A stretch of DNA of 57,564 nt, the filler included, from Asterionella formosa (Eukaryota), in the NCBI GenBank assembly GCA_002256025.1. It is 5 parts of 5 records of this genome, joined end to end, with 100 filler letters (N's around TTAATTAATTAA, not from the genome) between each part and the next. Parts side by side here need not be neighbours in the genome. Positions count along the whole stretch, not along the records: positions 1 to 11,442 come from NKIB01008511.1; 4 more parts are not named here. One strand, written 5' to 3'. Shown here piece by piece: positions 1 to 57,564 of the stretch. Position numbers and translations under genes: made by a program. Each line of letters begins with the position of its first letter. The stretch's first letter is position 1. The notes beneath the pieces were generated by a model that was not told where the DNA came from, searched no databases, and was given only the letters and a program-made list of their open reading frames with translations.

Positions 1-139
1 TACTAGTGCCTACGAGGACAAAAAGAATTATAGCACGTTACTTTGTCTATGACAAGAAAATTATTGGGTGTTTGGTTCCACCTCGAGAAAAATGTACAGG
101 GGGGTCCAGCAACCATAGGGGGGGTCCAGGACAATGAAG

Positions 140-810
140 TATACGGTACTTCTAGTTAGATACTTCACCAGGTACCAGGTACCGTACTGTACGCCGGGGT
201 AAACTAACAATGCTACATACCGGTACCTATACATGAGGTATTAATTAGACTACCGGTACCGGTACGTACAAGGAAATGTACAGGAGTAGGAACCATTGTA
301 CCTGGTACCTGGTACCTGTTTATCATGGTATGAGTACCAGCAAGTTGCGGTCATTTTGCTTTAACTAACAATTTAATCTAGGATAAAGATAGATAAATCT
401 TTAGTTTCAGCAAAATTACCGAAACTTGCAGGTACTGTACTGTATGTACCTTATGTGATTGCGCACATGGTTACCGGTACAGTAGGGAAATTGAGCCGGA
501 GAAAGTCGTTGGAATGAAAATTGCCCCGGAAAATTTGAACAATCGCTGCAATGATTTTTTTAACGAGAGGGAGAACCAGCAGTTTTGCAAGTTGCATGTA
601 TTTTTACCGAATAGGATGAAGATACCAGGTACACCAAATACAAAGAACAGTACAAAATCCCAAACGTACTGGTGATCCTACCAGTACCAGGGTACCTGGT
701 ACCAGGTACCGTTAGGTATGTGATACACACCTCCTGTATACGGTATGTTCGTCTGTCATACCAAAACCTGTAACAAATTTGAATATATTTGATGTACTAC
801 CGGTATCGGC
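140..810. repeat. Island of TA-CCAGG-TA / TA-CCGG-TA / TA-CTG-TA palindromic micro-repeats
   Basis: e.g. 173-191 TA CCAGG TA CCG TA CTG TA; 299-316 TA CCTGG TA CCTGG TA CC; 678-712 several more. Confidence 0.75.
337..432. mobile_element. ~96-bp Tc1/mariner-type (Stowaway-like) MITE, copy 1
   Basis: 24-bp TIRs with 3 mismatches (CCAGCAAGTTGCGGTCATTTTGCT vs revcomp of right end CCTGCAAGTTTCGGTAATTTTGCT); TA at both 335-336 and 433-434; AT-rich non-coding core; homologous copies at 5976-6092 and 57472. Confidence 0.8.
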
Positions 811-1035
811 ATTCATATGGTCGTGTAGGATGCATGACGATCGGTTTGAGCGATTTCTTTGTGAGGCTCATACGTGACACAAACTGCGCATTTGTTCCTA
901 TCATCACAGAATTTCACTCCTGTCATCAACTCTTGACACAATCATAAATTTCCTTTTTTCTTCCTTCTACGACTGTTCTTTTCATTGCTCTTGGGCTATC
1001 ATCAAGTTGAATCACAACACGCTCCACAAACTGCA

Positions 1036-1230
1036 ATGTCTATCGATTTGGCAACCTCCATTTCCGCTCTGGTGGGAACTTCGTTACTGTTGTTCTTTGC
1101 TACATCGCCTCGATCATCAGTCGTCAACGACGAGACTGAAGGAGAAAGGCAACTCAAGGGCTTTCTGAAATACAGCAGCTACCATCGGAGGAAGTATTCA
1201 AGCACCTCGAGCAGTATCGCCAGCAACTAG
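1036..1230 (+). CDS. Possible small (64 aa) membrane-anchored protein
   Basis: ATG at 1036 after a CA-rich leader; N-terminal hydrophobic stretch (SISALVGTSLLLFFA) then a basic/Ser-rich tail; no recognised homology. Confidence 0.3.
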   Translation: MSIDLATSISALVGTSLLLFFATSPRSSVVNDETEGERQLKGFLKYSSYHRRKYSSTSSSIASN

Positions 1231-1443
1231 TTCCTTATTCAACAAGACATCTCGAAGCGGTTCGCCGCGATTGCGATTGGACGACTGAAGAACAGAAGTG
1301 AAAGTTGCTAAATGGTTTAGGAACTTGAAAGCCCCAAACTAGTGCTCCGAGAAGCTTATCGTAACAACAATACCACCTATAAAACGAAGTAAACGCAGTA
1401 TATAACATATTATAAAGTACATTGCAGTGTCCAACAATCCAAC

Positions 1444-4400
1444 TTAAACCGGAACAATCTTCCAATCTTGAGACTTCCCGATGTCATACAAATGATTCAG
1501 AAATATGTCGAACACTCCAGTCCTCTTCATTTCCAACGCTCGCTCGTACAATTCGAATGCAGCCTTTGCATCCTCCACTGAATCGTGGAATTCTTCTTGC
1601 ATATCTCGCCTCAATACGTAATTGGCGAGATATCGAAGTGACATGTATCGTAACTGGGGAAAATGGAATAGCTCGACAGTATCAATAATGTGTGTTGGTG
1701 GAACGTACAGGTTGGCCATCAAAAAGTCTTGGGACAACCCGTGACCGACCCAAATGCAACCTCGCTCCATGAGGAAACGTAACTTCAAATAGGCAGCCCT
1801 AGTGGAGATTAAGTTATGAGGGGATGTCTTCGGATCCAAGTCGCTCGCGACAATGCCTGAAAAGCGGGTGAGATAGTCGACTACTGGTTCACGCGGAAGG
1901 ACATGATCATCGATGATAACTCTCCCGGTTGAGCAGTCGATGATCGAAATACGACCCAAGGCGCGGCGAGAGTCCCTAACTGTCACCTTTCCCCCCGATT
2001 CGTCCATCAAAGCAATTTCTTCCTGGACAGACACGAATTCAGCATCAAAAGCTATCAACTCTCCTTTCCCCGGGAGGTCTGATGGGCAAAGAACAATTTC
2101 GTTAGATGCTCACTTTGACGGGCCAGACACACCTTGCACGTTTCAAGCATACCAATGGAATTCTTCACTGAAAACTTGAGAGGTTTCAGGGAGCGTGTTT
2201 GCATGACACTGACAGGCAGTGGAGACGGCTTTTCATCAAATTTCACTGGCGGTGTTCCCATTGCTCGAAAAACCACCAAACAAGGCTCCTTAAACTCAAC
2301 ATTAAAACCACGTGCATCGTCCACGAAGGTCGGATTGACGACGAAGCCATTAAACAGAACCCAATCTTCCGACCTTTCCTTGTCTCCTGCTGAAATGCGA
2401 TCCTTCGCGATCTCGGCTCGCTTCTTGACGAGCGCGGGATCTAGGCTGCCTGTCATGGTGAGTTTCTCGGCGCATATCTGATTCTCGGCAACTTTTTGCA
2501 AGGATTTTACTAACTGTTCGGCATTATCACGCTGGCGAGTTAGACAGCGCTTCTTATACGTTTGAGGCACTCGTACGTGAAGAACGTGATGGCCATCAAC
2601 TCCCTCCCCGACAATCTTGGGATCCATATCATCTCGAATGAATGATAAGACGGCTTCGAGGCGATATTGGTACTTTTTCGGAGAAAATATATCCTTATCT
2701 TTCGTTAGTAGGTCCGAGATTTCCTTTGGCAGCTTGAGGTCCCCATGGAATTCAGTCCATTCTTTTTTCCCATCATCCAAATCAATTAATTCTCGGACCA
2801 CGACATTCCCATCATCTTGGATCTCTACCTCGACGAACTCCGGTAACCAATGGCCATTATTGATACCATGGCCTCGCCACAAGAACATGCCATCCTCTTC
2901 CTTGCGACCTGCACACGCGCATGAAAGGGAAAGAATTTCTGGAAGTGACGTAGCCAACTTTCGTTGGACAATTGTCTTGAATGATTTTGTTGATTGGCAC
3001 CAAGCCCGAATGCGTGATTCTCGACACAAGGCGTGCTGGAGAACTTGTCCGAACCGATAGGTGTGCTGCGTTGTTGAATTCTTTGTTTGTATGAAACGAT
3101 CGTAGTCTAACCCAACTGTTAGTGCTCGATTTGACTGGAAAGTTGGCTCGCCGGACACATCAATGAATTGATTGATACTGACAAAGTTAAGACCATGTAA
3201 GCTATCCATTAGCTTGGATCCATTTGTTTTCCTCCATCTGGCCTCTTTGTCAAGTTGATGAAGGAGGAAGCGATAAAAGGCTTCTGCGCGTTGCGCTCTA
3301 TCAACTGCAGCAGGGTTGTTGTCGAGCAGCGCCAAAGCATCTGCTTCAGGCATGGTAGTAAAAGCAGAAAGAAAGTTGATAGGAACAAAAGCGTCGACAT
3401 AGGGCGAAGTGTCACCATTAGGGTATATTGTCGCACTTTTGGAAATGCTTTCAATGTGGTGATACAAGAAACCAAGTTCTGTACTCAAGAGTGACATCTT
3501 ATCAACATAATTGGAGACACGAAAATTGTCAGATTGCGCTGCTAACATTGCAGAGCGTATTTCAGGAACAAAGTAAGTCAACATCAAGACGCTTGGAGCA
3601 TATGAACTAGGCATCGTGGAAGGATAGTCCCAACCAGGCCAGATTCCAGTCTTGTTGTAAGGTCCATGCTCAAAGAAACGTATTGACACATAGTGAGGGC
3701 GAAGTGTTGCTTTATAGCGTGCTGGAATTGAAGCACATTCGGATGCTGTGGTGTTTTCCAACGAATCTTTATCCTCACCCTTTGTTCTATTCTCACCCCA
3801 TCGAACGTCTGCTTGAAAGCAAATTCTTGCTAATTTCTCAGTGTACAACAGTTTGTTGGGATTAGGCAACTTTTCTTTCTTGTGTCCCTGGAGCTCCAAA
3901 GAACTCTGGTCTTCAAGTAAATCCAAGTGCAATGCAGATGTTGGTATAGTTTGTACAATATCACCGTCGTTCTGTAGAGCCTCCCGAATTAGAGTTGATG
4001 AGACCACCCGTTTACATCCACCAATCATAGGTGCGTCGGCTAGTGGACCAAACGTTGACGGTTCATTGGGGTTCCCTAATGGAGTCACGACTGGATTCGT
4101 GCACATCGTGTAGGCACCGAAAATACTCTTGATTCGATCTGTTGGTCCATTTCTTAGCCCATTAGGTTGATTCATCAAGACAACCGGATCAATCGAAAGA
4201 GCAGGAATCGGGGGCACGTAGTTTGGAAAATCAAGCAGTTGTCGTTCTTCCGGCTGATCATGTCGCATCTTGGTTCTTTCATATCCGGATAACTGATACT
4301 GAAATACATTGCTCTTGGAAGTTCCTACAGCTAGATATTCGTCCGAAACACACATGCCAGTCATTCTTTCTTCCAATTCAAGGGGAGGAATCATGAAACT

Positions 4401-5798
4401 GCTCGATGATACGTTAGTTACCGATCCAAAAGGTTCCAGAACTTGCAGGCCACCTCGTATTTGACTGCTTGCGGCAATGATTCGGTTTCTTGGCATCCCT
4501 TCCATATCTGGCATAAACTCCACAAACCTTGGCGATCCTCGAGTTCCAGAAAATGAATGCATGATTCCACCTCTGCCAAGATACCTTGCATCATAAACAA
4601 GCAAATGCTGATCGGGTAAGCAGTGCGGTAGGTTATAAATGTTGCTCCGTGATGAAAACCCAGTAGTTGCAATTAATACACCATCTTCACTGACTGATAT
4701 TGAGTTTACACCACCATTGTGAGATTTGACGTTGGCAACTTGGCCGCGCTTGATCCGTCCCGACCCATCGAGAAAGCGTATAGTTCCATCAGAGCATCCT
4801 GCCAGGACAGTATTGTTGGAATGATTGGAAGCCGTACACATGACGCCAAGAGTATCTTTATCCATGGATGTGGTCAAGGCTTGAGAGGAAACGATTCGAA
4901 GATTTTGATACAAGTCCATGCAATGTACCTGTGCCTTGTTTTGTGCCCCGGTGGAAATGCCCCCCACGGATATATGTGTCACGGCATCACCGACATGCGG
5001 ATGAGGCGTGGCACATATCATGCCTTCAATCTCATAGTCACTCACACAGAGCCCACCCTGAGTGTGCACCCTGACTGCGCCTGGAGATACGGTTACCAGG
5101 TATCCATTTGTTGCCAGAATTTCTGATATCCCCCAATGCGACGTGTTGGGAGTGAAGCTGGCCAAGTCCTTGGGCTCTGAAGCGCTTAGTGTATACGAAT
5201 AGCACGGTTCTATTGCACGTGATGGTATGGGACGATGTGTCGACTCAACACGCTGGCCTCCATAGAAGGTAGTGTATACCGCTTTGAGGGTGGAGATAGT
5301 CGCTTCCGGATGAGCGGCGCAGCTTGAATAGAGCATTCCATCCAAGGTCGAATGAGCAACTAGCATGGATGCCTTGTGGTGGCTGAATCTTCCGGTCTTT
5401 CCGAAGGTCTGTGTCAGAGAAGCCACATGCAGTGCGTGGTGGCTATCCGAGTAGCAAAGAGCCGAAACGGGCGAGCCGTACAGTGTTGGTTGAAGCGAAC
5501 CCAGAGCATCGTAGTACCCATATTCCACCGACGCTGGAGCTGACGCATCTTGATTCTGACCGTATTGCAGATATAGCTCTGATTCCTGGTATCCGTAGAG
5601 TTCCGAGAAGTCTTGGAATGGCTGCGTCGGATCTGAATGTGGATCGCCGACTAGACTTGGCGGCATTCCTTCTTGTTGCTGGAAGCCCCCTGTTGCGAAT
5701 CCATCCGGGCATTCTTCCTGATGGCGGTCATAGCTTGCGTTGTATCCGCCTTGGGGTTGCTGTCTGTATGGATTGTATTCACCCGCACCTGGGTTCAT
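1444..5798 (-). CDS. PAN2: PAN2 poly(A) nuclease catalytic subunit (WD40 + pseudo-UCH + DEDDh exonuclease), 2 exons, ~1426 aa
   Basis: Exon1 5798-2153; intron 2152-2079 (GTATGC...CTAAC...CAG); exon2 2078-1444; spliced reading NSI-D-LPGKGELIAFDAEF; exonuclease motifs AFDAEF, GHGLSQDF, HDSVEDA; PAN2 motifs VVDYLTRFSGI and AWCQ..K in the UCH region; WD-like N-terminal part. Confidence 0.95.
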
Positions 5799-5975
5799 GT
5801 TGATAGAACGAAGAATGGCGGCGCAGATATGTGTTCAATAGATGGAAGTAAATTTTGTTCCATCAAACATACACCTATATATCAATGAAATACCGGCATA
5901 TGATATAAATACAAAAAGATTTATAAATAAATATGCCAAGCATTCATCCGAGTCTACAGGTACCTGGTACTGGTA

Positions 5976-6092
5976 CCAGAAAGTTGGGGTCATTTGGCTT
6001 AAATAAAGCGGTAATTGTGCTAAACTAAAAGTTTAGCTATTTTTATCCGATATTAAATTGTTTATTTAAGCAAAATGACCGAAACTTGGAGG
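5976..6092. mobile_element. MITE copy 2 (reverse orientation relative to copy 1, with an extra partial end)
   Basis: 6008-6092 aligns to the reverse complement of 337-432; TA flanks at 5974-5975 and 6093-6094; embedded in a TA-CCTGG-TA-CTGG-TA chain. Confidence 0.75.
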
Positions 6093-6294
6093 TACCAGAG
6101 TACCTAACACGTATTACCTGGTATCAAAAAATCCAAATGCATCTTGCTTTCCATTCAATATATGTAGTAGCTCTCACTCCAATCTTGATTTGTCAAAAAA
6201 ATCCAAGCTCCCAATGAACCTGACAACATTCTATGCGGAAATCCCATTGGTATAGTCGTAGCAGGTTTTTCGTTTCCATCAACATAGTAGGAGT

Positions 6295-6518
6295 ATCCTT
6301 ACTTCAGTTTGTTGTACATGTTGCCTTTGATCTGAAGTTGTGTGGTTCGATTCCCACGAATTTTTTGTTAGAAGCAATTGTTGGGTTTGACTCCCCCACT
6401 CCTTACCATCCCACATGGTCATGCCTGGTGGTGTGCAAGAAATAGTGGGTTTGACCCCCTAGATATCAAGTAGCTTGTTGTGCCGCCTTACTAGGCAGTC
6501 AGAGTATCCCCTGATGCT
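6295..6518 (+). mobile_element. tRNA-derived SINE-like repeat, copy 1
   Basis: Degenerate tRNA-like head (TACTTCAGTTTGT...CCTTTGATCTGAAG..GTGGTTCGATTCCCAC) with a B-box, followed by two more B-box-like hairpins; homologous to 14701-14887 on the minus strand. Confidence 0.55.
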
Positions 6519-6850
6519 AAGGCGCTCACATGCATTGAGCATTGTCTAAACATAGTAACATCAAATCGGTATGAAATTATATTGCCACCACGAGTGGCAG
6601 TATTTCATGAAACCAAACCCGAGATGCTGTCAATTTCAATGATATTCCAAAAATTGTTCATATTTTCGATATTCTTTTGTTAGCTAAGAAAACAAAAAGA
6701 GTTGTGTAGAATTTAGTTAGGAAATTTTCTACATTGATAGAAAGGATTATTGATTTGCTAGATATTTAGTCAAGAAAGGTAGTCCTGAGTTCCCTGAAAA
6801 AACTCATTTTGCATTTTCGGACACACATATACAAGAAGTGTAGGGTACCT

Positions 6851-7046
6851 GACAGTGATAGTGATACTAGTGACAGTGATAGTGATACTAGTGACAGTGA
6901 TAGTGATAGTGATACTAGTGACAGTGATAGTGATACTAGTGACAGTGATAGTGATACCAGTGACAGTGATAGTGATACTAGTGACAGTGATAGTGATACT
7001 AGTGACAGTGATAGTGATACTAGTGACAGTGACAGTGACAGTGACA
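6851..7046. repeat. 21-bp minisatellite (GACAGTGATAGTGATACTAGT)x~8 plus AGTGAC units
   Basis: Directly visible tandem array; translates as (DSDSDTS)n in one frame but not within a gene-sized ORF. Confidence 0.95.
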
Positions 7047-8275
7047 TTGATGTTTTCTTCTGAAAGTTGGAGTGAGTGAGCAATGAACTGGCATTTTTGT
7101 CGGATGGTTTACATGTGGTGATGGGTGATGTTATAGGGTACATATATAAATATTATATATATATATATATATTTATAATAATTAGTAACAATATCACCGG
7201 ATTTCAAATGATCCTAGCTATGATTGTTACCAGTACTTTTAATCTAAAACACATATCCAAAATACTCCTACCAGATAATTCATATAATGTCTAACACACT
7301 GTCATGAATAAATTTGCAGTTAGGTGTACCAGTAACACATCTTGCATGGCTGTGCACATTTTCAAATCAGTGAAATTTACCTTTCCATGTCGATTTCAGC
7401 AACTACGATAGTTGACAGAAAATAAATATAATTTGTTGCCATGTACAAGGATGCATTATAGAATGGCCTCATAAATGGTTCAGCCAGCTCAAATATATAT
7501 TCATATATTATCTGCCACAGAATCACAATACACCTAATAGTCACTTCATCACCAATAGTTTTCCTTTAAATAATAAAATGAATGGCTGTAAAAGATGCAT
7601 TTGATTAAGTTGTAACGATGCATAAAACCAGTGCAGCTTGAAATTGACAAAAAAAGGAAATGGAAAATGATAGAAACCTGATAGCGATTATTTCGTGTAA
7701 AATCTAAGCGTGTTTTTCAGTTGATAGGATTGCAGCAATTTGAAAATCGATAGTTAGCAACTTACCACTAGCTCCATGAAAGATTGGAATGTCGCATCCC
7801 CTGTTCTTATTATTGTAGTAGATGGAGCTATTCAGTTGCAGTGTAATTAGGAAGAAGTAGTTTGAGCCATTCAGTTGAAAAGGAAGACCTCAATTGATCT
7901 AATCATGATAAATATTGATGCTGAGATTACGATGAATGGTTTTGAAAAACAGATAGTAACGATTTTCAATGAAAAAATAAAATTTTATTAATGGATATAT
8001 CGCAACACCAACTCATTGCGTTTTGAATACTAATAGTATCGCTCGGCCTTTTCTACAAGATATGTAAAAGAATCTACCAATTGCAACAAAGTTTGCGAAG
8101 AAAGGATAAAACCTAATGTCGACAATGGATATTGAACACCTCGATAAGTTGTTTGCATTTTTGTATTCTCAAAGCAAATATACATTCATGACTGCAAAAA
8201 TCGCTCAGTTTTGTCATCATAACGCAGACCGACAACTTTATGCGTTTTGAGCACATGCTCGGTTTCGTCTAAAAC

Positions 8276-8875
8276 ATAGCTATGTGAACAAGGAATATAC
8301 ACAATTGTACAAAATTGGACAAGAACGATAATTTTTTTCTGCAAATCCACGTCTGTGAATAGATTTTCCATTAGATCTAACGTTTTACTCAGCCAGCATA
8401 CATAAAAAAACTGATTGATAATTCAAATATTTTGACATGTTGATAATAATTTTGATATATCAATGGCAGTGTCTGCATGATCAATCAAATTTGTACATTA
8501 GGTTAGTAGCATACACCTGTTAGGTTATGTGTATATAAGAACTCGTATATATTAGTTACCAAATCTAATCAGTTAACCAAAATTGTTGATATATTGATCA
8601 AATGTTGTGTTATGTTGATGATAATTTTGATATATCAATGACCGAGTTGGTGTGGTCAATGAAATTTGTTTGTCAGATTACTTTCTTACACACGTCAGGT
8701 TACGCATAGATAGAAGTCATATATATTAGTTATCAAAACTAATAGGCTAACCAAATGCTTTGATATATTGATATGTAGTTTGATTGATCAATAGCATATG
8801 TGAACAAGGAATATACACATCTGTACTAAATTGGACAAGAATGATAAAAAACAATTTCTGCAAATCCAGTCTGAA
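8276..8875. repeat. Nested direct repeats: ~80-bp pair (8276-8358 / 8791-8875) enclosing a ~175-bp tandem pair (8436-8605 / 8611-8775)
   Basis: TATGTGAACAAGGAATATACAC...TTTCTGCAAATCCA occurs twice; TGTTGAT.ATAATTTTGATATATCAATG...TGATATATTGAT occurs twice. Confidence 0.7.
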
Positions 8876-9688
8876 CACCTTAATTGATTTCTTTTTTAAA
8901 AATGCAAGTAGCTACACTGCTTCATCAAATTAGATAAATTATAGGGCATACAAACTCACTCAATATCGTCATAAAACCACCAACTTGTTACGATTTGCTT
9001 GTTTGAATAGCTACCTTGTGTATGTGCCCCTTCCTTGTCTGATTTCTTCCAACTCACCTCTAGCCGTAAAAAAATTACACCACCAGGACATGTAAGCACG
9101 ACCACGCCAGCTGGTTTTGATCTAATTGTACAATGTTGTGCTACAAATGAGTACGCATCATGGCCCTGCAAGGATGTTGATAATGAGCTAAAACGAAGTC
9201 TAAACAATTGAAAATAATCGACTAATATAGTGATGGTCTTTTACAGCATTTATTTTGTTCAAATCAACCATATAAATTTACATGAAGGTCCATTCAGGTA
9301 ATACGTGGCTTAGATGATTGTTTCAAAGATGAATCATTTCCGCTGCAAGAAACATGAAGGTTTGGATAAAAAGTGGACAGTGGAATAATTGTGGGCTTAG
9401 TATGGCAGTTCAGTCTCAACTGGTGCATCGCATTAAACCAAGCAATAAATCTAAGAAAAAGCAGGGATGGGTGACAAAACAGAAAAAAGCCTAGAAACGA
9501 AAAGAGTTGTTCAAAACAGAGGACAGTGGTGCAGAGAAATGATGCGAAAACTCTGCAGCAAAAACAGCTTTGAATTCAAATGGTGGAGGTAATATGAAAG
9601 AATTAGTGAGGACAGATGGAGGGAAGCAAGATCATTCAGATATTGGTATGGGAAGCAAACAATACTTTAGTCATGCTATCACTCAAGG

Positions 9689-11442
9689 TCAACCATTGCC
9701 AACTTTCCTTGACCCATTTGTATGATCTTGCTCATGGCTTTTATACCAAGCTATGTCCAATACTCGAGCAGCATCTCTAATTATTGCGAAATTTGACAGA
9801 GTAGAGTGGATTTTCATATGAGAGAGAACACCGATTCCATCATTAAAAGACTGGCAACAGAATGGGCATAAACGTTTGCAAGTCTTGGCTAATCTTTTCC
9901 GTTTAAGAGGAATGCTCCAGACCCTTTTCAGACCAACAGCAAGAGCTGCTGCCACCTTAGCAGAAGGTGAGAGAGGGATCTTGGCTTCTGGGGTTGCTTC
10001 AATTTCCTTCAACAACTTCTCCATTTTATATTGTCGAATAAAATTTGGGTCAAAAATGTTTCGTTCTGGTTCCCAAGTGCAGTCATTCAATGTAAACCCT
10101 TTCCATTTAATACAATATTCTCGACCACCATTCCCAATAGTACGGTCATCAATAATGGCTTCTACTTCAAAAATCCCTACCAATTGGAACTTTTTATCAA
10201 CCTTTGGTGCCGAGAATTTCTCTGGCATTGAATCTACTGAATCATTGATACTCTTGACGTCGTCTGTTTCATCCATTTCATCACAGCCTTTATGGATCCC
10301 ATCCTCTGATTCAACATGGTCCAGCATTTCTTCGTCATCAATACTTCCTCTCGTGCTGCTTACCCGATATTCACTTTCACCGGTTTCAGTATCACCATCA
10401 TCGTTTGATGCTCTCTTTTGGGGTTTTAAATTTGGAGCACACCCAACTGCATTGTTCTGGTGCATGGCTGTTGTAAGGACGGGATGTGCCACCATGATGA
10501 TTTCTGCGATCATATTGGCGTCTTCGCTTGCTAGGACTTTCTCGAATGGAGGTAACTGGACATGTTTTAGAGATGCCGGTCGCGTGAGAATGGGATCTAC
10601 GAAGCAACCTGGTATCATGTTTGAGTCTTCACTGACTTGGACTCTTGGTGATGGAACCATTGCGTTATGTTGACGCTCGGGAATTGTGAGCGCAGAATTG
10701 GCCGCTGCAACTGTCGGGATTTCTTTGACGTCTACATATTCGCTTGCTACGCGTTGTGATGATAGAGCTACCACCTTTCCTATAGATGCAGGTGTTGTGT
10801 AAACAGGATCTCCCACAATGATTTCTGTCATCAAATTTGTGCCTTGTTCGCTGGCTTGGACTTTCTCTAATTGCGGACTCTCGATCGCGTTTACCAAGCT
10901 TTCAGATTTCACAGTTGTGATTTCAATGCATGGGACTCGATGTTTCTCCAATACCGTATAAGTTTGAGACAAACGGTTTTGGAAAATAGGATCTTCCACG
11001 TTATCTGAGATTCTACAGGTTTCCCCTTTTCCTGAAGCTTGTCCTGTACAGTCCTTCGCATGCTTCTTATCCTTGTGTTTTGCGAGCCCATTATCTGTCA
11101 CGCTTTCAGATATATGATTACTGCCTCGGTAATCTCTCTTTGATGGTAGTAGAATAAACGACTTAATTTCAGGCGCGAAGGTCTTAGGAAGTAGTTGAGC
11201 CAACGTTTCGTTGATGGTTGTGATTTCGTTAGCTGGCCATTTTTGTGGCAAGAAGGAGATGTTTTGAGTACGAGACAAAATCGGCGGAATTTGCAGCACA
11301 GCGGCCTCTTGTTGTATTTGTACTGGAAGCGCCGGCTCGTTCTCCAGATTTATGTTGATATCGGTTGTTCGTACAGAAGGAAAATGCGCTTGCGATTCAT
11401 TGAAACAAGTATCAATTAGATCTTCAACCTGTTTGCAACCGT
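9689..11442 (-). CDS. Chromodomain + C2H2 zinc-finger protein, 5' end lost in the gap
   Basis: Chromodomain FEVEAIIDDR...EYCIKWKGFTLNDCTWEPERNI; C2H2 CPFCCQSFNDGIGVLSHMKIH; the frame stays open from 11299 up to the gap at 11443. Confidence 0.8.
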
Positions 11443-11542
11443 NNNNNNNNNNNNNNNNNNNNNNNNNNNNNNNNNNNNNNNNNNNNTTAATTAATTAANN
11501 NNNNNNNNNNNNNNNNNNNNNNNNNNNNNNNNNNNNNNNNNN
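11443..11542. other. Artificial contig linker (N44-TTAATTAATTAA-N44)
   Basis: Identical 100-bp structure occurs four times; TTAATTAATTAA gives stops in all six frames. Confidence 0.97.
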
Positions 11543-11669
11543 AACTATCTTGAAGAAGCCAGGGAACTATTTAAATTAGAGGGAAAAGGAAGGAAAATGG
11601 GTAGAGAATTCCTGTTCGAAGGGTGTTGGCGAATTTTGAAGGATGCCCCAAAGTGGAAGGGTGGGTGTG

Positions 11670-12916
11670 CATATGCCAATTTGGGTAGATTCCGTCAACC
11701 AAATAATACCCCAGATTGTGTTGTTGGTTGTTGATGGCAAACTGTACTTTTGGAGTCCTTCCAGCTGACAAATCATGGAAAAACGGTGAACGATCCAAAA
11801 TATTAAGATCATTGTTTGCCCCGGGCATTCCAAACCATGCATGCCAGAACCAAAGTCTACAATCAACCGCAGCTTCCAAAGCAATTGTCGCCACTCCTTC
11901 TTTTCCTTGATATGCTCCTCTGTGTGCTTTGGGACAGTTTTTCCACTCCCAATGCATGACATCCAATGAACCAAGAAGACCCGGCCAACCCTTTCCTTCA
12001 TGCAAACGTAGAATCATCTCAAGGTCCTCTTTGGTCGGAGCTCTAAGATACTCTTTCCCATACCTGTTGATTATTGCGTTACAGAAGTGTTGCAAGTTGT
12101 TGAGTGTTGTTGACTCTGACATCCTTGTTAAATCATCCAACTGATCAGCCGATGTTCCATAGGCTAACATGCGAAGCGCCGAGGTAAGTTTTTGGTGTGG
12201 CGAAAATCCCAGTAAACCCAAGGCATCCTTCTTCTGAGAAAAGTAAGAATCCGAAGAAACCAAATCATCAAGAATCTTCTCAAACAACGAACGTCTCATC
12301 CGGAAGCGCCTCCTGAACATTGCTGACGAGTAAATCGGATTTTCACCGAAATAATCCTTTTTCAAAAGCTTGTCATAGTCTGTCCGAAAACGATTGAGAT
12401 TGGATGCCTTTCCCACCTTTGATCCTCCTCCCTTGTTTCTTTCTTGCTTGGCATTCTCGCGTTGCTTCCGCATATCGCGGAAGTGGAAGAAGCGATCGTC
12501 ATCTGATGAGTCGCTATCATTGCTCATTTTCGCTGTGTCGAAACAAAAGTCATATTTATTGGTAATAATAAAGAAGCCACAATTCTCTACGAACAATATT
12601 CAAGTACATAGTTGTAATATTTTTTGATGGGCAGTACCAGATAGTACCGGTAGGAGTATTGCTAGCTGTTTAAGAATAAGGTATGTATGCGGCTACTTCA
12701 TGAATTAAAAGCGATACACACGAAACTACAGTCTACCTTTATTTCTATCGGCTAATAATTTAGGCGCGAGATTTGACTAATATAAGATTTGGTCGATGCG
12801 GTGGGAAAAAAAAGAAAAATTCGACTATTGATAAAAAATTTCTCGACCAAGTGACGTGTATTGATATTTTCAACTGCAATTGGCTTTGGTATTTGGTCGA
12901 TGCGGTGGTGATGCTC
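11670..12916 (-). mobile_element. PIF/Harbinger DNA transposon (5' end + transposase, 3'-truncated)
   Basis: ORF from ATG 12527: FRRRFRM, QKLTSALRMLAYG, GSLDVMHWEWKNCP, HAWFGMPGANNDLNIL, YYLVDGIYPNW; terminus GAGCATCACC at 12916 flanked by TAA/TTA (12917-12919); subterminal repeat TTTGGTCGATGCGGTGG x2. Confidence 0.9.
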
Positions 12917-22981: not shown

Positions 22982-23081
22982 NNNNNNNNNNNNNNNNNNN
23001 NNNNNNNNNNNNNNNNNNNNNNNNNTTAATTAATTAANNNNNNNNNNNNNNNNNNNNNNNNNNNNNNNNNNNNNNNNNNNN
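22982..23081. other. Artificial contig linker
   Basis: N-TTAATTAATTAA-N, 100 bp. Confidence 0.97.
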
Positions 23082-27036: not shown

Positions 27037-27835
27037 TTGCCATCTCTGTACAAGTCAATACCAAACAAAATCTATAGTGTTGTTAATCCGGTTAATGTTC
27101 AGACACTAATTAAATCAATGTTGAAATATTTGTATATTTCGCTGTATATTATATGACGTTGAGAACTCTAACTTACCCTAATCCATGTTCTCCATGTTTT
27201 TTGTCGATTCACTTTTTCCTGCAATTACAGAGATGAACACCTGACTCCAAATCTCAAACTAAATACATAGTTGACTAGCCTACATGCTCGAGAAGGAGCC
27301 AGAACTCTCAGAATCTACATTTACTTAAGTTTTGATAGCAAAACTTGTTATTATGCATTAAATGGGTCATGGCAGTTTTTACTGGTACCCTTTTACAATA
27401 CACACACAACTACCATGGAACCCATACGTAGTAAGACATATACATGTACACAAGACTGATCATGAGTAGTACGTGATGCCATATACATGGGTACTTGTAT
27501 GTAGCTTGTAGTACATATTGCATTTTATACCGGCAGCTACATTGGTACAGATGTACCTCTAGAATAGACGTACCACCTATAAACTGGCTGAGAGTCATAC
27601 AAACTTTCAGTTTTGTACTGATATTCATAACAAAACGGGGTAATCTCACGGTTTGAGACGAATATTTGTAATATTATAAATCTGTATTAGACAAAGTTCT
27701 TCCTGTGCATGTAAGGAACAGCATTGTTCGTACTTGAATACTGCAATCTCGTACCAGTTCTTTAGTTATAGTTGCCCAAAATTGGTTGTCAACGGTTTTT
27801 GGTCCAAATCAGTTTTACCCCATTGAGCCTGCATG

Positions 27836-31629: not shown

Positions 31630-32077
31630 TTCACCAACGCCATCACCTACTGCGCAACCGACGCTTTTACCCACACTTAAGCCGACTGTTTGCCCTAGCG
31701 TCCCACCTACTGTAAATCATACAGCAAGTCCGACTTTTTATGTGGCACCACCAGTGATGGCAACTGCATTCCCAAGTAGCATTCCAAGCAGCTTCCCAAG
31801 TTTGGGTCTCGGTTCCATATACGGAAATGTCTCAGAAGACACAGATAACAATGATGTCAGTTACGTAAACATAAGAGGCGTTCGCATCACTCTGCTCGAT
31901 TCTTCCAAAAATGCGGTGACATCTACATACACCAATTCGAATGGCAACTATTGTTTCTACGACTTGCCTTCGGGGAGCTATTATGTCGTGGAAGAGAATT
32001 TGAGTGGATACATTGACGTGAAGGACTTGGATGGCCATATTCCAAACGGTAATGCAGTGACGTTGGGTAGTGTGCAG
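31630..32077 (+). pseudogene. Inverted partial duplicate of the SdrD-B/PT-repeat gene (one PT linker + one B domain)
   Basis: Sense-strand match to the minus strand of ~33795-34260 (PTVNxTASPTFYVAPPVMATAFPSSIPSS...GNVSEDTDNNDV...YYVVEENL); diverged but frame open; no signal peptide or C-terminal domain. Confidence 0.8.
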
Positions 32078-32429
32078 ATTGTGATCTTACAGCACTTCCT
32101 GGCCGGCTAATTCTATCCCGAAGCCTTCTATTGCTTTCTTGTATCTTGTAAGGACATGTCAGGGACCAACTAGGCTGTAGATATAAACGACGATGCTACT
32201 GATCGATTGTAATCCTTCTTAAAAGTTTTAACAGAACATCCAAAAAGTTGAAATTACCTGACTCCTCCACAAGGGAGTCACAACCATACCAACACCCTTT
32301 TATCTTGGCCATTGATACAATGCATAAGAAGTTGCAATGAAACTAAGTACTAATGCCCTATAAAAATTTTTATTTATGAATTTCCCCAAAACAATCTCTT
32401 CTTACTTTGAGGATGTTTATTGCAGAGAT

Positions 32430-34511
32430 TCAGTTTGTTTGGCCATTTGTTCCACCAACAGAGTTCAAGTTGCTAGTATTACCTCTCAATCCCTTTTCAT
32501 TCCCTCTGTCTCTAGCTTCACATTTGCTAGGGTAACACTTAATGACATAACGGAAGTGACACAATGAAGCATCAATTCCAGTTTCATCACAAGCCTTGGG
32601 AATTACAAGGGAAGATCCATCCGTTTGTCTATATTGATCTCCATGTTTGTATAGGTCCACAATTGTCACACCATCTACACACAAGGCAGTGTATTCTTTC
32701 GAAATTCCACACTCCTCATCCTTTTGACATGTTAGGTCATTGTTCCTGGCAATAAAATCAGTGGCAACCCATGCACTGGTGCAATCATGCTTCACCATGA
32801 AAGTCATGGTTTCACCATCTTGAGAGATAATCTGGATCTGATCCTCTGTCATCTTTGTCATACAGTTATCAACAGGAATTCTGTGGAAATCAATGGCTCT
32901 GGATAGGCTTTCGCAACTAACTTTGAATTCCTCAGGAAGAATATTTGCATCAATGTTAACGCCATTCAGGAGGCGAAATGAATTGGACTGAGCCGTTGGC
33001 CATGGAGTAGGTTGCACAGTCGGCCATGGAGTAGGTTTCGCAGTCGGCCATGGAGATGGACTAGCAGTGGGTTCACGTGTAGGTGCTGCAGTCGGCACTG
33101 ATGTGGGAAAGAATGTAGGATTGGAAGTAGGATTGAAAGTAGGATTGAAAGTAGGATTGAAAGTCGGTTGGGAAGTAGGATTGAAAGTCGGTCGGGAAGT
33201 AGGATTGAAAGTCGGTTGGGGAGTAGGATTGGAAGTAGGATTATAAGTAGGATTTGGGGTTGGACTCGATGTTGGTTGTCTGGAGTCAGATGGTGAGGAA
33301 CTGGGGAATGAACTTGGATTTTGACTCATACTGGGAAATGCGCTCGGTAATCCTGTCGGACGAGGTGAGGGCAAGTAAGTGGGAAATGCAGTGGGAGAAA
33401 GAGTAGGCCCTTCCGTCGGTTTTGCTGTTGGTACTCCAGTGGGTGGTAATGTCGGTGTTGTGGTCATTCTTCTATCAACAAAGTAGTTGTCCAAATTGTT
33501 TCCTTTTGTGATATCAACGGAAATGCTGTTGAGATTTCCTCCATCACTGTCTCCCACATCCGTATAGCCGTGAGGAGTATCCTCAGTGACGTAATAATTT
33601 CCAGGAGGGGCAATGAATGTGAAGTTTCCATTGGAATCAGTGAGTACAGTCACCGTGGTTCCATTAGGATAATTCAACGTCACGCTTACGCCAGGGATCG
33701 GTGTGTCTCCCTTGCCGTCGTTGTTGGTATCCTCTAACACCTGTCCTGTAATCAAACGCAACTGTTCGTCAACAAAGTCGTTGCCAGTGCTGTTCTGCGC
33801 ACTACCCAACGTCACCGCGATACTGTTTGGAGGAGGGCCGTCCGAGTCCTTCACGTCGATGTATCCATTCAGATTCTCCTCCACGACATAATAGCTTCCC
33901 GAAGGCAAGTCGAAAAAACAATAGTTGCCATTCGAATTGGTATATGATGATGTCAAGGCATTTTTGGAAGAATCGAGCAGAGTGATGCGAACGCCTCCGA
34001 GGTTAACGTTACCGACATCATTGTTATCAGTATCTTCTGAGACATTTCCGCAAATGGAACCGAGTCCCAAACTTGGGAAGCTGCTTGGAATGCTACTTGG
34101 GAATGCAGTTGCCATCACTGGTGGTGCCACATAAAACGTCGGACTCGCTGTAGGATTTACAGTAGGTGGGAGGGTAGGGCTAACAGTCGGCTTAAGTGTG
34201 GGTAGAAGAGTGGGTCCTGGCGTTGGTGAAGGTGTTGGTCCAGGAGATGGTTTCAGTGTTGGCTGAGGGGTAGGACTAGGTGTTGGGAGTGGTGTCGGTG
34301 ACGGTGTTGGTCCAGGGGATGGCATAAGGGTAGGTAGAAGAGTGGGACCTGGCGTTGGTGATGGAGTTGGTCCAGGAGTTGGCTTAAGCGAGGGTTGAGG
34401 TGTGGGACCTGGCGTTGGTGGCAATGTCGGTGATGTGGTCATTCTCTTATCAACAAAGTAGTTGTCCAAACTGTTTCCTTTTGTGAGATCAACGGAAATG
34501 CTGTTGAGATT
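32430..34511 (-). CDS. Extracellular adhesin/mucin-like protein: SdrD B-like (Cna-B) domains, Pro/Thr repeats, C-terminal Cys-rich domain; 5' end lost in the gap
   Basis: B-domain motifs G.V.EDT.N...GV..TL...T.SNGNY.F..L..G.YYV.E...GY.DV.DSDG (two complete, end of a third at 34440-34511); long PTPxPT/PTFN repeats; 8-Cys C-terminal region; frame open to the gap. Confidence 0.85.
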   Translation of the reverse strand, partial: NLNSISVDLTKGNSLDNYFVDKRMTTSPTLPPTPGPTPQPSLKPTPGPTPSPTPGPTLLPTLMPSPGPTPSPTPLPTPSPTPQPTLKPSPGPTPSPTPGPTLLPTLKPTVSPTLPPTVNPTASPTFYVAPPVMATAFPSSIPSSFPSLGLGSICGNVSEDTDNNDVGNVNLGGVRITLLDSSKNALTSSYTNSNGNYCFFDLPSGSYYVVEENLNGYIDVKDSDGPPPNSIAVTLGSAQNSTGNDFVDEQLRLITGQVLEDTNNDGKGDTPIPGVSVTLNYPNGTTVTVLTDSNGNFTFIAPPGNYYVTEDTPHGYTDVGDSDGGNLNSISVDITKGNNLDNYFVDRRMTTTPTLPPTGVPTAKPTEGPTLSPTAFPTYLPSPRPTGLPSAFPSMSQNPSSFPSSSPSDSRQPTSSPTPNPTYNPTSNPTPQPTFNPTSRPTFNPTSQPTFNPTFNPTFNPTSNPTFFPTSVPTAAPTREPTASPSPWPTAKPTPWPTVQPTPWPTAQSNSFRLLNGVNIDANILPEEFKVSCESLSRAIDFHRIPVDNCMTKMTEDQIQIISQDGETMTFMVKHDCTSAWVATDFIARNNDLTCQKDEECGISKEYTALCVDGVTIVDLYKHGDQYRQTDGSSLVIPKACDETGIDASLCHFRYVIKCYPSKCEARDRGNEKGLRGNTSNLNSVGGTNGQTN

Positions 34512-34611
34512 NNNNNNNNNNNNNNNNNNNNNNNNNNNNNNNNNNNNNNNNNNNNTTAATTAATTAANNNNNNNNNNNNNNNNNNNNNNNNNNNNNNNNN
34601 NNNNNNNNNNN
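34512..34611. other. Artificial contig linker
   Basis: N-TTAATTAATTAA-N, 100 bp. Confidence 0.97.
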
Positions 34612-34714: not shown

Positions 34715-34920
34715 GGAAGGTCCCGTAAAACACTTTTTTCACTTAAAAAAAGATTAAGCTAAATATCTCGATGACCGGTCCTTCCAGGGAAGGTCTGGTA
34801 AAACACGTTTTTACTGTCAGAAAAGATTAAGCTTAATATCTCGATTACCGGACCTTCTAATGGAAGGTCTATACTTAAGTAAAGATTAAGCTAAATTTCT
34901 CGACAACGGGACCTTCCAAG
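34715..34920. repeat. Three ~47-bp direct repeats, each ending in a (full or partial) GACCTTCC..GGAAGGTC hairpin
   Basis: AAAGATTAAGCT(A/T)AAT(A/T)TCTCGA...CCTTC at 34749, 34822 and 34881, plus a partial unit at 34715. Confidence 0.8.
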
Positions 34921-43930: not shown

Positions 43931-44465
43931 CTAAGAAATGATTATCCAATGGTCCATTATTTGTTCTTTTTCACTCCCAAAGAACCTAAGATGGTCCTTC
44001 TCGTTTCTTGTTTCGTCGGAAATTTTGCTTCTCCACTTTTCAACTGCAGTTCGATATGAGTCTGCAAAATTTTTCAAGTTGATTCCAGAAGGGCTATCAT
44101 CAGATACAAAATTTTCTTTCAACTTTTTGTCAATTTTGATGCATCCAGAAATTTGGCCAAGAGGTGCATGATTATACAATTTGAAGGGAGCAAGTTTGTC
44201 ATTACTTTGTTGTATCATGGATTTTACGTAGACAACTTCATCCTTCTTGAAAGAAGATTTGCAAGGAACTCGTCCAAATACTTCGTTCAACATTTTTAAA
44301 TCTAAATAGGATGTCAAAATTTTGTCGATACAAAATTGAAGAACAGTTATTTCCAACTGAAACATATCCTCACGAGAATTTGTCGTTGTCACTTGAGGCC
44401 AAACTGTTCCAAGATGAAAGTATGTGAAGAATCCAGAAGATACTTGGCGTATTGCTATTCCTACA
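43931..44465 (-). CDS. Orphan ORF 3' fragment, cut at its 5' side by the gypsy integrase fragment
   Basis: ~178 open codons in AT-rich DNA, ending where integrase homology begins. Confidence 0.35.
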
Positions 44466-44469
44466 TCGC

Positions 44470-45480
44470 TCATTATTGGATCCTACTATTAATTGGTATC
44501 ATCAGATGTTAGCTCATGTGGGTATGACAAGATTAAATGCTACAATTGCTACACATTTTTATCACCCTACATTAAAAGCAAAAGTGGAACATATTGTTAG
44601 CATATGTGAAGCATGTCAATGTACAAAATTCCCTGGTATTGGTTTTGGTGAACTTCCACCCAGGAATGCATTGTTATTACCATGGTCAGAAGTCGCAGTA
44701 GATCTAATTGTTCCATGGAAGATAACAGTGGCTGCTCAAGCGATTGAATTTCGTGCTTTAACTTGTATTGCAATAGTCAACAATTTAGCAGAAATTTCAC
44801 GTATCAACAACAAAGCGATGAAATTTGAAAATTATTGGTTAGCCAGATATCCCCGTCCAGAACGTTATATACATGACAATGGAGGTGAATTTACTGGTGT
44901 TCCTTTCTTAAACATGCTGTTAGTATTGAATGGAATTAAAGATGTGACAACTACAGTAAAGAATCCACAAGCAAATGCTATCTGTGAATATTTACATCAA
45001 TCTATCAGCAATAGTCTACGAGTTATGTTAAAGGCTCATCCTCTAATAAATGAATTTCAAGCCCAAAATATTGTTGATACATGTTTTGCAGCTGCGTCAT
45101 ATGCAGCTCGAGCTATATTCATAGTATATTACGTGTTTCACCAGGAGCATGGGTTTTTCAACGTGATATGATATTAAATATTCCTTTGATTACAGATTTA
45201 CAATTTATACATCAACGTTGACAAGTGATGATTGAGTTAATTTACGTCGTCGATCTTATGATTACAAAGTGGGTGACGAGATTTTAATACTATTGGATAA
45301 TCCTACTACTTTGGATGATCGTGGATGAGGTTGGCACTCCTTATACAATTATTCAAGTACATGCCAATGGTACAGTACTTTTCAACGTACTATACATATT
45401 ACAGAACGAATTAATATTCGTCGTATCAAACCTTTTCATAGGTAAAAGGTTTTCCCTCAAGTGTGGGAGAGTGAGCAATC
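44470..45480 (+). mobile_element. Ty3/gypsy integrase fragment with polypurine tract and probable start of the 3' LTR
   Basis: HHCC (WYHQMLAH...CEAC), D (VAVDLI), D (IHDNGGEF), E (NPQANAICE); frameshifts after ~45110; GGGAGAG-TG at ~45465-45473. Confidence 0.85.
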
Positions 45481-46040: not shown

Positions 46041-46140
46041 NNNNNNNNNNNNNNNNNNNNNNNNNNNNNNNNNNNNNNNNNNNNTTAATTAATTAANNNN
46101 NNNNNNNNNNNNNNNNNNNNNNNNNNNNNNNNNNNNNNNN
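46041..46140. other. Artificial contig linker
   Basis: N-TTAATTAATTAA-N, 100 bp. Confidence 0.97.
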
Positions 46141-46500
46141 ATGTACATTATTCAATATTACGTATCATACTTTGGTGATGTATGCATCGATGTAACCTTA
46201 TGATGATATCACATCATCTTATCAATCATGATGAGATGATTGGGAAGCAACTGTATTCTGCATCGTGCTACAGGGTATATTATTATATCACGCAATTTAG
46301 TAGCGAAGTCACTCCGCCTGTAATGTACTAAAGTCGACAGTGCACATACCGGGTACCGGTACTCAAACGCTAATCAGGTTTGAGGCAACGGACAGTGGTT
46401 CGAACGAGCGAATGATGATACAGTACCAATTTTTCCAACAAAAGAACTTGTCTCTCTATTGATGAGGATGACACGGACACCGACTTTTTATTTGCAGACG
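46141..46500 (-). mobile_element. Internally deleted copy of the CGTCTGCAAATAAAAA-terminated element
   Basis: Reverse-complement match to ~40315-40669, joined directly to the terminal motif TTTTTATTTGCAGACG at 46485-46500. Confidence 0.7.
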
Positions 46501-50589: not shown

Positions 50590-50852
50590 CATACCAGTAA
50601 AATATTACTCCTGTACGGAATACACCTACGGCAGTACGGAGTGGGTCCTGGAGTAATGTACCGGTAACAGGTTACATGTGTAGTAAAGTATGTAGAATGT
50701 ACAAGGGGTGCCCCCAACTCAACTGGCTGATGGTCCGGACCGGTACCTGGTACCAGTACCCCGCTGGAAGTCTATACGTCCAATATGATACACTGTTACT
50801 CCGCACTCCAAGTACCAGGTACCTGGTACCAGGTACCAGATAGTTTCCCGGT
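50590..50852. repeat. Island of TA-CCAGG-TA / TA-CCGG-TA micro-repeats upstream of TUL1
   Basis: 50813-50842 TA CCAGG TA CCTGG TA CCAGG TA CCAGA TA; 50740-50760 similar. Confidence 0.75.
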
Positions 50853-51215
50853 AGGCTCTCATGTAAAGGCGGGAGTGAAATGGCCTGAGGCTGATCTCTA
50901 TGATTGCTCCTTCGCCTGTGAGGAATGTTTCATTGCCGTCTCAAGCTTAAATCAAAGCAAAGCATCACGAATAGCAATAAGGAACTGAAGGTGTGGTGTG
51001 GGTATTACGCGGGTGGTGAAATTCTAAACGTGAACGAAGTAGTCTAAAGGGAAGCCAGGTCCATCAAAGCATTGAAAACTTAGCATTGCACTTGATTCGT
51101 TGTCAACAATTTTCAAGGTTTCTAAGTGCAAATTAACACAGTGCGAGTTCATTCCCACGACCTACGAGTTCCACGTATTCAGCCACTCTTTCCAATACAC
51201 CTCTCGTCAGCTATT

Positions 51216-54200: not shown

Positions 54201-54452
54201 AGAAACAGGACAAAGAAGGGCAAGGCACGAGTCAAGACGGAGACTACATCCATGATTACTGAATCTCTCACCGAAAATCCCACTGGTCCTACATTGGATT
54301 GCGTTATTTGTTGTAACGATATCAATCTTCACAATAGAAGAGGGTACATGCTGGCTCCCTGTGACCATATATTCCACCGTGAATGTTTGGTCCAATGGAT
54401 GGATGTCAAAATGGAATGTCCTGTCTGCCGAAAGGAGCTTCCCGCAATTTAA
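51216..54452 (+). CDS. TUL1: Transmembrane RING-H2 E3 ubiquitin ligase, Tul1/Dsc1/FLY family (~1078 aa)
   Basis: First ATG at 51216; N-terminal hydrophobic helix, NATGFYRGEW, multi-TM block (KAINYS...RQL, SFWVPQI, Q.KYGARFMVP.RFLP.KFDY), C-terminal CVIC...YMLAPCDHIFHRECL..WMDVKMECPVCRKELP. Confidence 0.9.
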   Translation: MFPPSDSPEPWEMDPSTAEAWRERERRQRSVRLLMMFLLMLLLMDGEEQSNRRRNEPLLRRKKNSRKPVILEQSVFRARRDQDEAILKLTKTHPRFLELLALNGKINYEAQARKWADQFTAEDQEDIEADDDGDEDERKVFHYPWNATGFYRGEWIREEMEDEEIDGKNKEEDHEEFKEKPVQFMTPLELERTMSDMLARQEEQIGVFLLPEGIHVQMENSTAMSSDLTAAETDRQGNVEQPSNFKVAVGTSVGRAASPFMRYSDFTTLVEEEDDQSSIRLPLTKLTGRAALQLYSRSVPSMKELSLVEGFVKLYDSNTVGYSTRRDILLRARGVLIHSIGRLSLVSNAAPGRALFVVSDQSTHEKTNKKSKSDQTKNVQSTRLLKSLEEVHKYSDPSMLDQIRQDAMDLYPYDAQEENFKGWNIMSSFSHFDDDIQNLNNSNDKSFSDERGTWFNEILKNFLRFGETWSDMIPNQRNLRQDVTALGAAMKFPLSDNDDDVFTDEGPFLNLTQINETIAFENRRAQVADVDDSEEGHEVLELVKMSNIVFPFPYVRDDKGESVRKAKTPASRRMPLREQTLEANAGSCEFQINLDVKEIEWTMGEWKRLMIRRVQDTKNSDPSIHKNDPDEADEIDEGDASRNTSHWKRKHESNETPIKERALLKPMQDQALIMMMTGAISSLNCDFTASLNVTAIRTDWEQTTSKAINYSFYMMLTCLTQIVVLLRQLLHTQAQSTAIRVSLLCIGWQTVLDALVCLAHVYLSLAIQPLFTAFASVAFFKLLIFCVIEMKYMAIILQARSSATGGQNLAESLRRQVALIHVRFYVALVFAFLAFFYAGQKYRTIYILALYSFWVPQIVQNVVTEAKRPLHIYYIYGMSITRMVAPLYIFAVPDNFLKEVYPDSPTNIFMCEILVVWVGIQAFVLIAQGKYGARFMVPARFLPPKFDYNRPVPPSMMPTDDILEPPVSRPDAGEQTSEPALLSSETSPERTTTGTRNRTKKGKARVKTETTSMITESLTENPTGPTLDCVICCNDINLHNRRGYMLAPCDHIFHRECLVQWMDVKMECPVCRKELPAI

Positions 54453-57419: not shown

Positions 57420-57499
57420 TGGTTGTACCGGTACCATGTACCAGGTACCTGGTATCAGGGTACTCAGCATACCGGCAAGTTGCGGTAATTTTGCTAAAC
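57420..57499. mobile_element. Footprint-like chain followed by one end of MITE copy 3
   Basis: 57426-57462 TA CCGG TA CCATG TA CCAGG TA CCTGG TA TCAGGG TA; then TA|CCGGCAAGTTGCGGTAATTTTGCTAAAC at 57472. Confidence 0.7.
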
Positions 57500-57564
57500 G
57501 AGCAGTATCCAAACTTTAGTGCTACATACGTCATCGTGCTGGCAATAGTGATTCCAATTCCAAA

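Follow-up and report, generated by a model that had tools for sequence, protein, structure and literature searches.

The window analysed here is the whole stretch of 57,564 nucleotides from Asterionella formosa. It consists of five contigs joined end to end, the first being contig C8511 of a 68 Mb assembly of 15,436 contigs, with artificial N linkers, each enclosing a 12-base AT word, at 11443-11542, 22982-23081, 34512-34611 and 46041-46140. Three genes were located in the window: PAN2 (1444-5834, minus strand; Pfam WD40, UCH_1 and RNase_T), a TUL1-like RING ligase gene (51126-54452, plus strand; Pfam DUF2921 and RING) and a gene for an RRGS-motif protein (54844-56340, minus strand). Pfam matches bear out the first two names, which were given in a preliminary description of this DNA, whereas the RRGS protein has no Pfam family. 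A Plant_tran (Harbinger-like) ORF lies at 11571-12599 (minus strand); its occurrence in several contigs with identical scores and positions suggests young, near-identical copies, and related elements carry GAGCATC-type TIRs. A chromodomain ORF (9689-11442, minus strand) and an integrase zinc-finger ORF (44428-45171, plus strand) are probably pieces of LTR retrotransposons. We also observed a 446-bp inverted repeat (89%; 31633-32078 and 33794-34239) enclosing a portion of a 709-codon ORF that contains SdrD_B and PT repeats, three 70-bp copies with short inverted ends on each (34715-34916), and a 21-bp minisatellite (8.7 copies, 6850-7038) that begins just past a GGTACC at 6844.

Four islands in the window parsed as TA dinucleotides separated by short spacers, as the preliminary description had proposed. 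With spacers of up to 6 nt, CCGG (9), CCTGG (8), CCAGG (6), CCAG (3) and CTG (3) predominated over CAG (2), CGG (2), CCG (1) and CTGG (1); the units and islands were parsed from the sequence and carry no strand. For the most part, the islands do not consist of pure chains; island 1 (140-810), for instance, contains six CCWGG units (CCWGG denoting CC(A/T)GG) and five CCGG units in 670 bp. These comprise a TA-CCAGG-TA unit (173-181), with CCG and CTG spacers after it, three TA-CCGG-TA units (218-264, starting at 218, 251 and 257), a two-unit CCTGG chain (299-314), further TA-CCGG-TA units at 472-479 and 798-805, a lone TA-CCAGG-TA unit (623-631) and the mixed chain TA-CCAG-TA-CCAGGG-TA-CCTGG-TA-CCAGG-TA (679-708). 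An 88-bp MITE with inverted ends (341-428, plus strand) sits inside a TA-CCAGG-TA unit of this island, between direct CAG repeats at 338-340 and 429-431. In island 2 (5961-6123), units of the CCTGG and CTGG types accompany an incomplete MITE end (5980-6007) and a minus-strand MITE copy at about 6008-6088, and a CCTGG unit lies at 6115. In island 3 (50659-50835), a CCGG unit at 50659 and CCTGG and CCAG units at 50744 are followed by the chain CCAGG-CCTGG-CCAGG (50813-50835), 5' of the TUL1-like gene. Island 4 (57096-57454) has CCGG units at 57096 and 57126 and the chain CCGG-CCATG-CCAGG-CCTGG (57426-57454), which is one unit longer than in a 96% identical copy (L060); a MITE end at 57476-57564 (minus strand) is cut by the contig end.

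The genome was sampled as fetched stretches and search loci (labelled L001 onwards), a sample that is not random because contigs were picked for carrying MITE or transposase matches. Unit enrichment was analysed in 74 stretches (732 kb) of other contigs against an order-2 Markov model. This analysis revealed 326 TA-CCGG-TA units against 6.1 expected (54-fold) and 287 TA-CCWGG-TA units against 6.5 expected (45-fold). The CCAG/CTGG spacer (198 versus 27.4 expected), CCSGG (29 versus 2.1) and CCAGGG/CCCTGG (29 versus 1.1) were also in excess. The spacer list of the preliminary description thus held strongly for CCGG, CCWGG and CCAG/CTGG but only weakly for CCG/CGG (1.8-fold) and CAG/CTG (1.3-fold). 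When flanking dinucleotides other than TA were counted, a comparable excess was found only for words overlapping the TA-bounded units. By extrapolation from 1.2 Mb the genome holds ~26,000 CCWGG and ~28,000 CCGG units; exact genome-wide counts gave 5,576 adjacent CCWGG pairs and 1,141 CCWGG triples. An origin of CCWGG by CpG decay of CCSGG was ruled out by the scarcity of the sister product CCCAG/CTGGG (10 versus 441). CCAG/CTGG units may be in part CpG decay products of CCGG and in part scars of the CCA-ended family described below; GG precedes TA in 116 of 608 of their flanks. In the same 732 kb, TA-CTCCGAG-TA was 40-fold enriched, on 8 counts, and we take it to resemble Stowaway-type ends.

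Paralogous copies were compared in a final all-against-all BLAST of 1.9 Mb, which yielded 2,524 distinct indel contexts; because merging relied on local sequence, a few events may count twice. Non-tandem insertions at a TA accounted for 30 of 169 six-base indels in the case of CCGG plus TA and for 10 of 117 seven-base indels in the case of CCWGG plus TA. No unit lay near the empty site in 38 of these 40 events, and one did in the other 2. Empty paralogues outnumbered filled ones in 21 of the 24 informative events, with the reverse in 3 and ties in 16 (P = 0.0003). TA-CCGG-TA and TA-CCWGG-TA units are added one by one at plain TA sites, and the proposal that they arise as TA to TA-X-TA insertions is upheld. 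Other events that kept TA in the empty copy included CA/TG (8), CCAG (6), CCG (3) and CCA (3). Units also stack serially, as previously proposed: three paralogues show TA (L080), TA-CAG-TA (L064) and TA-CAG-TA-CCTGG-TA (L130) at one site, and, at a site where five paralogues show a single TA, L072 carries CCGG, CCTGG and a CCAGG occupied by a MITE. In the window, TA-CCGGG-TA-CCGG-TA (46347-46361) represents 13 extra bases relative to the single TA of its paralogues (window about 40440, and L116). In a candidate three-state series, comprising L168 (empty), L150 (filled) and L257 (TA-CCAG-TA), the match is confined to the left flank. Alignment of reads to positions 1-11442 was swamped by repeat contigs, and no unit-sized indel occurred among the indel rows listed. 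As a separate observation, insertions of the type TA to TA-GC-TA (34 events) and TA to TA-C/G-TA (72 events) were as common as those of the CC..GG type (L078:2260, L066:5318, L076:847); TAGCTA was 2.7-fold enriched in the 732 kb and had no 5' bias.

Two transposon families in this genome duplicate TA on insertion. A DDE_1 profile search of the genome returned 93 matches. Complete elements with TA-flanked CCG(T) TIRs were found at three loci and with CAGT at one; in L051, L054 and L056 the DDE_1 transposase lies within the TA-flanked TIRs, which identifies a pogo family. Empty paralogues with a single TA were found for two CCG elements (L051/L172 and L056/L281). The first 148 bases of the window (1-148, plus strand) are the right end of a CCG-ended pogo-like element, with a TIR at about 119-146 ending in CGG and a TA at 147-148. 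This end has the same TIR as the DDE_1-coding element in L054 and is identical to the first 148 bases of contig L073. The CCG-ended pogo element is likely the source type of the TA-CCGG-TA units. Genome searches with the DDE_3 and Transposase_1 profiles gave no match, the Transposase_1 search having been run without a positive control. Nine CCG-family copies (L035-L043) have identical scores and end at the same base at contig ends, which suggests recent activity.

The second family was found by searching for repeat ends after TA-CC and has TIRs of the form CCA(C/G)TTAAAAAC. One end pattern yielded 228 exact ends; copies are about 740 bp or 2.1-3.7 kb long, TA lies outside 51 of 57 ends, and the ends are paired and inverted, consistent with TIRs and a TA TSD. 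Single-TA empty paralogues were identified (L166-L291/L060, L170 and L033). The paired, inverted ends and the single TA at empty sites rule out another type of element with a 3-bp TSD. The CCAC end occurs in 49 of 67 cases in one subfamily, whereas CCAG ends prevail in the wider family. Within the window, a CCAG-type end with TA outside, in GG-TA context, lies at 27364-27387 (minus strand; like L091 and L240), and a CCAC-type end after G-TA at 27571-27610 (plus strand). Relatives were collected from 80 metagenome loci, 47 of which were long enough and were scanned. Complete elements of 3.5-3.8 kb bounded by CCA(G/C) TIRs were evident in about a dozen of the 47; TA adjoins the outside of nearly all of them, and two relatives sit inside CCWGG chains. 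Among 37 distinct ends in the metagenome loci, 27 were CCAG and 25 had G before TA. A relative from another organism (L419:203-3718) has TIRs starting CCGG.

Two long CCA copies carry a broken ORF without a Pfam match, with at least 152 matches in the genome among the matches listed and 244 database relatives; named relatives of a resident transposase occur in the diatom Fragilaria crotonensis. The fold predicted for the CCA ORF (pLDDT 82.5) is an RNase H-like DDD core. Superposition on the Mos1 and Metnase cores gave Z-scores of 8.5 (rmsd 3.1, 137 aligned) and 8.2 (rmsd 3.3, 138 aligned), values tied with those for retroviral integrases (7.9). In an alignment of 44 sequences, D13 and D200 are invariant and D162, which is not listed as invariant, stands between invariant L161 and G163. 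On the strength of the model, the ORF is a candidate DDD/E transposase with an RNase H-like fold (IS630-Tc1-mariner/pogo superfamily). Its match to the pogo profile was colinear but weak (E = 0.11). The DDE_1 profile matched none of the 44 family members, a PDB sequence search with the ORF returned nothing, and Foldseek with the model gave no match at E 0.001 or better.

The two families differ in the sequence beside their TA. GG preceded TA at 36 of 51 CCA ends and at 0 of 27 CCG ends (P = 2e-10), and the two main unit types were divided along the same lines: GG was found in 516 of 919 CCWGG flanks versus 125 of 994 CCGG flanks (counting both sides of each unit), compared with 6.9% of all TA. 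The CCWGG profile is not a product of chaining alone, because 248 of 639 flanks without an outer unit still had GG. At de novo CCWGG sites, G preceded TA on 13 of 20 sides (P = 0.0002) and lay two bases out on just 6 of 20. Consistent with their GG-TA flank profile, CCWGG units often had a neighbouring unit (229 of 441), whereas CCGG units seldom did (71 of 484).

These data indicate that the units are very probably excision footprints of the two resident TA-duplicating families, and that the CCWGG footprint would renew the target of its likely source. The preliminary description had predicted that spacers would reproduce the terminal nucleotides of resident TIR families, and they do, as CC+GG for the CCG family and as CCA+GG or CC+TGG for the CCA family. 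Tc1/mariner excision is described in the accessible part of PMC6943129 as leaving 3' overhangs of terminal bases that are fixed between two TAs by end joining, and we infer that excision followed by repair of such overhangs writes the units. CCG-ended pogo elements would insert at almost any TA and leave CC+GG on excision. The CCA family (about 3.7 kb, with derivatives of about 740 bp) would insert mostly at GG|TA and leave CCA+GG or CC+TGG, converting GG-TA-CC to GG-TA-CCWGG-TA-CC. Both TAs would then stand in the preferred context, so that one GGTACC target would become two and chains of random orientation would grow. The earlier idea that the repeat renews its own target is thereby restricted: CCWGG rebuilds the GG-TA-CC context of its likely source, but CCGG units are mostly solitary (413 of 484).

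Published footprints resemble the units in part. Sleeping Beauty leaves TACAGTA/TACTGTA (accessible part of PMC6943129) and Tc1 leaves taCATGta (as cited in the part of PMC3520976 available). As in those systems, TA is duplicated around terminal bases, and the two CCWGG forms are about equal (CCAGG 203, CCTGG 238 in the sample). Unlike them, the CCWGG unit retains five bases, rebuilds a preferred target and chains, and the units occur naturally in tens of thousands of copies by extrapolation. For the pogo transposon Passer, the available part of PMC9976928 reports footprints of 0-4 bp, a TA in a AAGTACTT palindrome and a bias to genes and promoters. The likeness lies in the TA within a GTAC-centred palindrome, the 5' bias and the DDE_1 transposases of the CCG family; the CCA family differs in its lack of a Pfam match, its preference for GG|TA and the 37 residues between its second and third candidate aspartates. 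Several findings weigh against the footprint reading: CCWGG, at 5 nt, exceeds the 0-4 nt (Passer) and 2-4 nt (Tc1/mariner) given in the accessible literature, although CCGG falls within that range; CCATGG, a 3+3 product, was rare in the sample (8 versus 441 CCWGG); and CCAGGG/CCCTGG exceeded CCACGG/CCGTGG there (54 versus 6) even though CCAC is the commoner end in one subfamily.

The unusual 5-nt length would also suit a process in which a transposase or host nuclease cuts at TA without full insertion and excision, the letters being supplied during repair (CC+GG and an untemplated A or T, for instance). The estimated tens of thousands of units of each type against 228 exact CCA ends would fit such a process too, but cut-and-paste elements would be expected to leave many scars per surviving copy, and no source of CC and GG letters besides the element ends is known; we regard this explanation as extremely unlikely. 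Growth of a simple-repeat family by slippage and template switching from palindromic seeds, with transposons merely landing there, is very unlikely as well. Adjacent CCWGG pairs shared orientation in 3,074 of 5,576 cases genome-wide (55%; 51 of 92 in the sample), and the first 50 listed CCWGG triples, some of which overlap, comprised 19 homogeneous, 27 mixed and 4 alternating cases, with 12.5 expected each for homogeneous and alternating. Three CCWGG indels in the 1.9 Mb were tandem, and the extra unit at 57434 adjoins a similar unit. The excess of same-orientation pairs and homogeneous triples and the three tandem indels indicate that some slippage or bias adds to the chains, but its share is minor because only 55% of adjacent pairs agree. 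The remaining 45% are opposite, chains mix unit types, and among indels observed at least twice there was no class of tandem CCGG. Slippage as the origin of the units is refuted by the insertions at bare TA at unrelated sites, 38 of 40 of them having no neighbouring unit to copy; it likely remains a minor amplifier. Variation solely by slippage of a fixed 7-mer, which the preliminary description had named among the outcomes that would overturn it, does not describe these arrays.

The preliminary description had assigned the role of source to the 88-bp MITE, taking it to be TA-flanked, to start CCAG and end AGG, and to generate the units by its own excision. Its ends are the commonest repeat ends after TA-CC, which would agree with a TA-duplicating element with CC(A/T)G ends, but the core at 341-428 lies between CWG direct repeats and TA was present at both proposed TSD positions in just 26 of 56 copies, the flanking CAG/CTG forming the direct repeat. 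Genome-wide, the left end was preceded by CCTG 165 times and by CCAG 159 times. A right end lay in range for 39 of the 56 distinct left ends, and the middle base was A or T in 37 of these; in 32 of the 37 copies the two ends carried the same base in direct-repeat orientation (P = 7e-6). The interiors of A-type and T-type copies did not fall into separate clusters (P = 0.07 and 0.32), and the two types thus form no subfamilies. One family of empty sites was recovered, for L030: its unoccupied paralogues contain a single CAG, and TA is missing on the right side of the occupied copy. The insertion target was reconstructed as GGTAC-CWG-GTACC, and 23 of 56 copies show a perfect 3-bp repeat; because this target does not vary, duplications of 1 or 2 bp would look the same as one of 3 bp. 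The MITE duplicates CWG, not TA, and inserts into existing units: it is a secondary user that duplicates the central CWG of its target, and the units are its targets. Its excision is highly unlikely to have made them, and its classification as a Tc1/mariner (Stowaway-type) MITE was rejected.

The MITE works like a PHIS/Harbinger element. Its duplication of CWG in a longer palindromic target resembles that of zebrafish Harbinger3_DR, presumably a comparable CWG-duplicating system. The same likeness extends to the NuwaI group of PHIS transposons, which duplicates CWG, has TIRs that usually start GGG and, in the accessible part of PMC4482050, is reported from animals only. The MITE differs from that group in its TIR start, CAAG (GCAAG under the 1-bp parse) instead of GGG, and in that its target is the likely footprint of another element. 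It was not assigned to NuwaI because of this TIR start and because no coding partner with its TIRs was found among the 11 stretches examined. Plant_tran elements with paired ends had different TIRs. Longer non-coding elements (L273:470-1862, L218, L221 and L229) share the MITE TIR and CWG flanks and have other interiors.

We also examined the position of the units relative to genes. Three of the four islands lie 5' of the PAN2, TUL1-like and RRGS genes, island 2 being located about 160-330 bp 5' of the first methionine of PAN2. Using non-repeat ORFs of at least 250 codons as a crude proxy without an intron model, CCWGG density per 1,000 TA was 21.5 within 1 kb 5', 2.8 within 1 kb 3', 6.7 far from ORFs, 4.0 in repeats and 0 in ORFs. 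The corresponding values for CCGG were 22.8, 5.4, 7.8, 2.6 and 0.8, and TAGCTA was flat (6.7 versus 6.4, 5' versus 3'). Unit density was thus 4-8 times higher on the 5' side of long ORFs than on the 3' side, which supports the earlier claim that the units concentrate near host genes, except that island 1 lies 3' of PAN2, at a contig end. Such a 5' excess is the pattern anticipated if the units were selected protein-binding promoter motifs, their likeness to transposon ends being incidental, as proposed for TACATGTA in Phytophthora. That motif, likewise a frequent palindrome bounded by TA in the upstream regions of a stramenopile's genes, was taken in the accessible part of PMC3520976 for a transcription-factor site, with a footprint origin expressly rejected; de novo insertion is what we observed for the units here. 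Binding motifs predict no insertion of whole units with TA duplication, units also arise de novo inside repeats, and each unit type shares the flank profile of one transposon family. Insertion bias suffices for the 5' excess, because Passer also favours promoters (PMC9976928, in the part available). Selection of binding sites is very unlikely to account for the units, although the host may later have co-opted them as promoter signals.

Our literature searches, which were partly narrow and mostly lacked subscription journals, yielded no description of these units from diatoms or of footprint chains on a genome-wide scale. Taken together, the footprint reading accounts for a dispersed simple repeat with a bias to promoters by a route that involves neither slippage nor binding-site selection and in which scar and target would form a positive feedback. 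Because the flanks tie each scar type to a family, the genome would therefore keep a countable record of past cut-and-paste events. The CCA transposase provides a testable family that is widespread in algal metagenome contigs, is absent from Pfam and has a narrow target preference. More tentatively, and with considerable doubt, we suggest a three-tier promoter-writing system, in which an unclassified diatom DDD transposase prefers GGTACC and its scar doubles the target, the resulting self-renewing landing pads upstream of genes draw transposons from coding DNA, and a CWG-duplicating MITE specialises on the scars, the host having possibly co-opted the units. The findings call for caution in motif-finding studies when frequent palindromes bounded by TA in the regions 5' of genes are interpreted as factor sites. 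By extension, if the three-tier reading is true, TA-bounded motifs taken for factor sites in other stramenopiles could be footprints.
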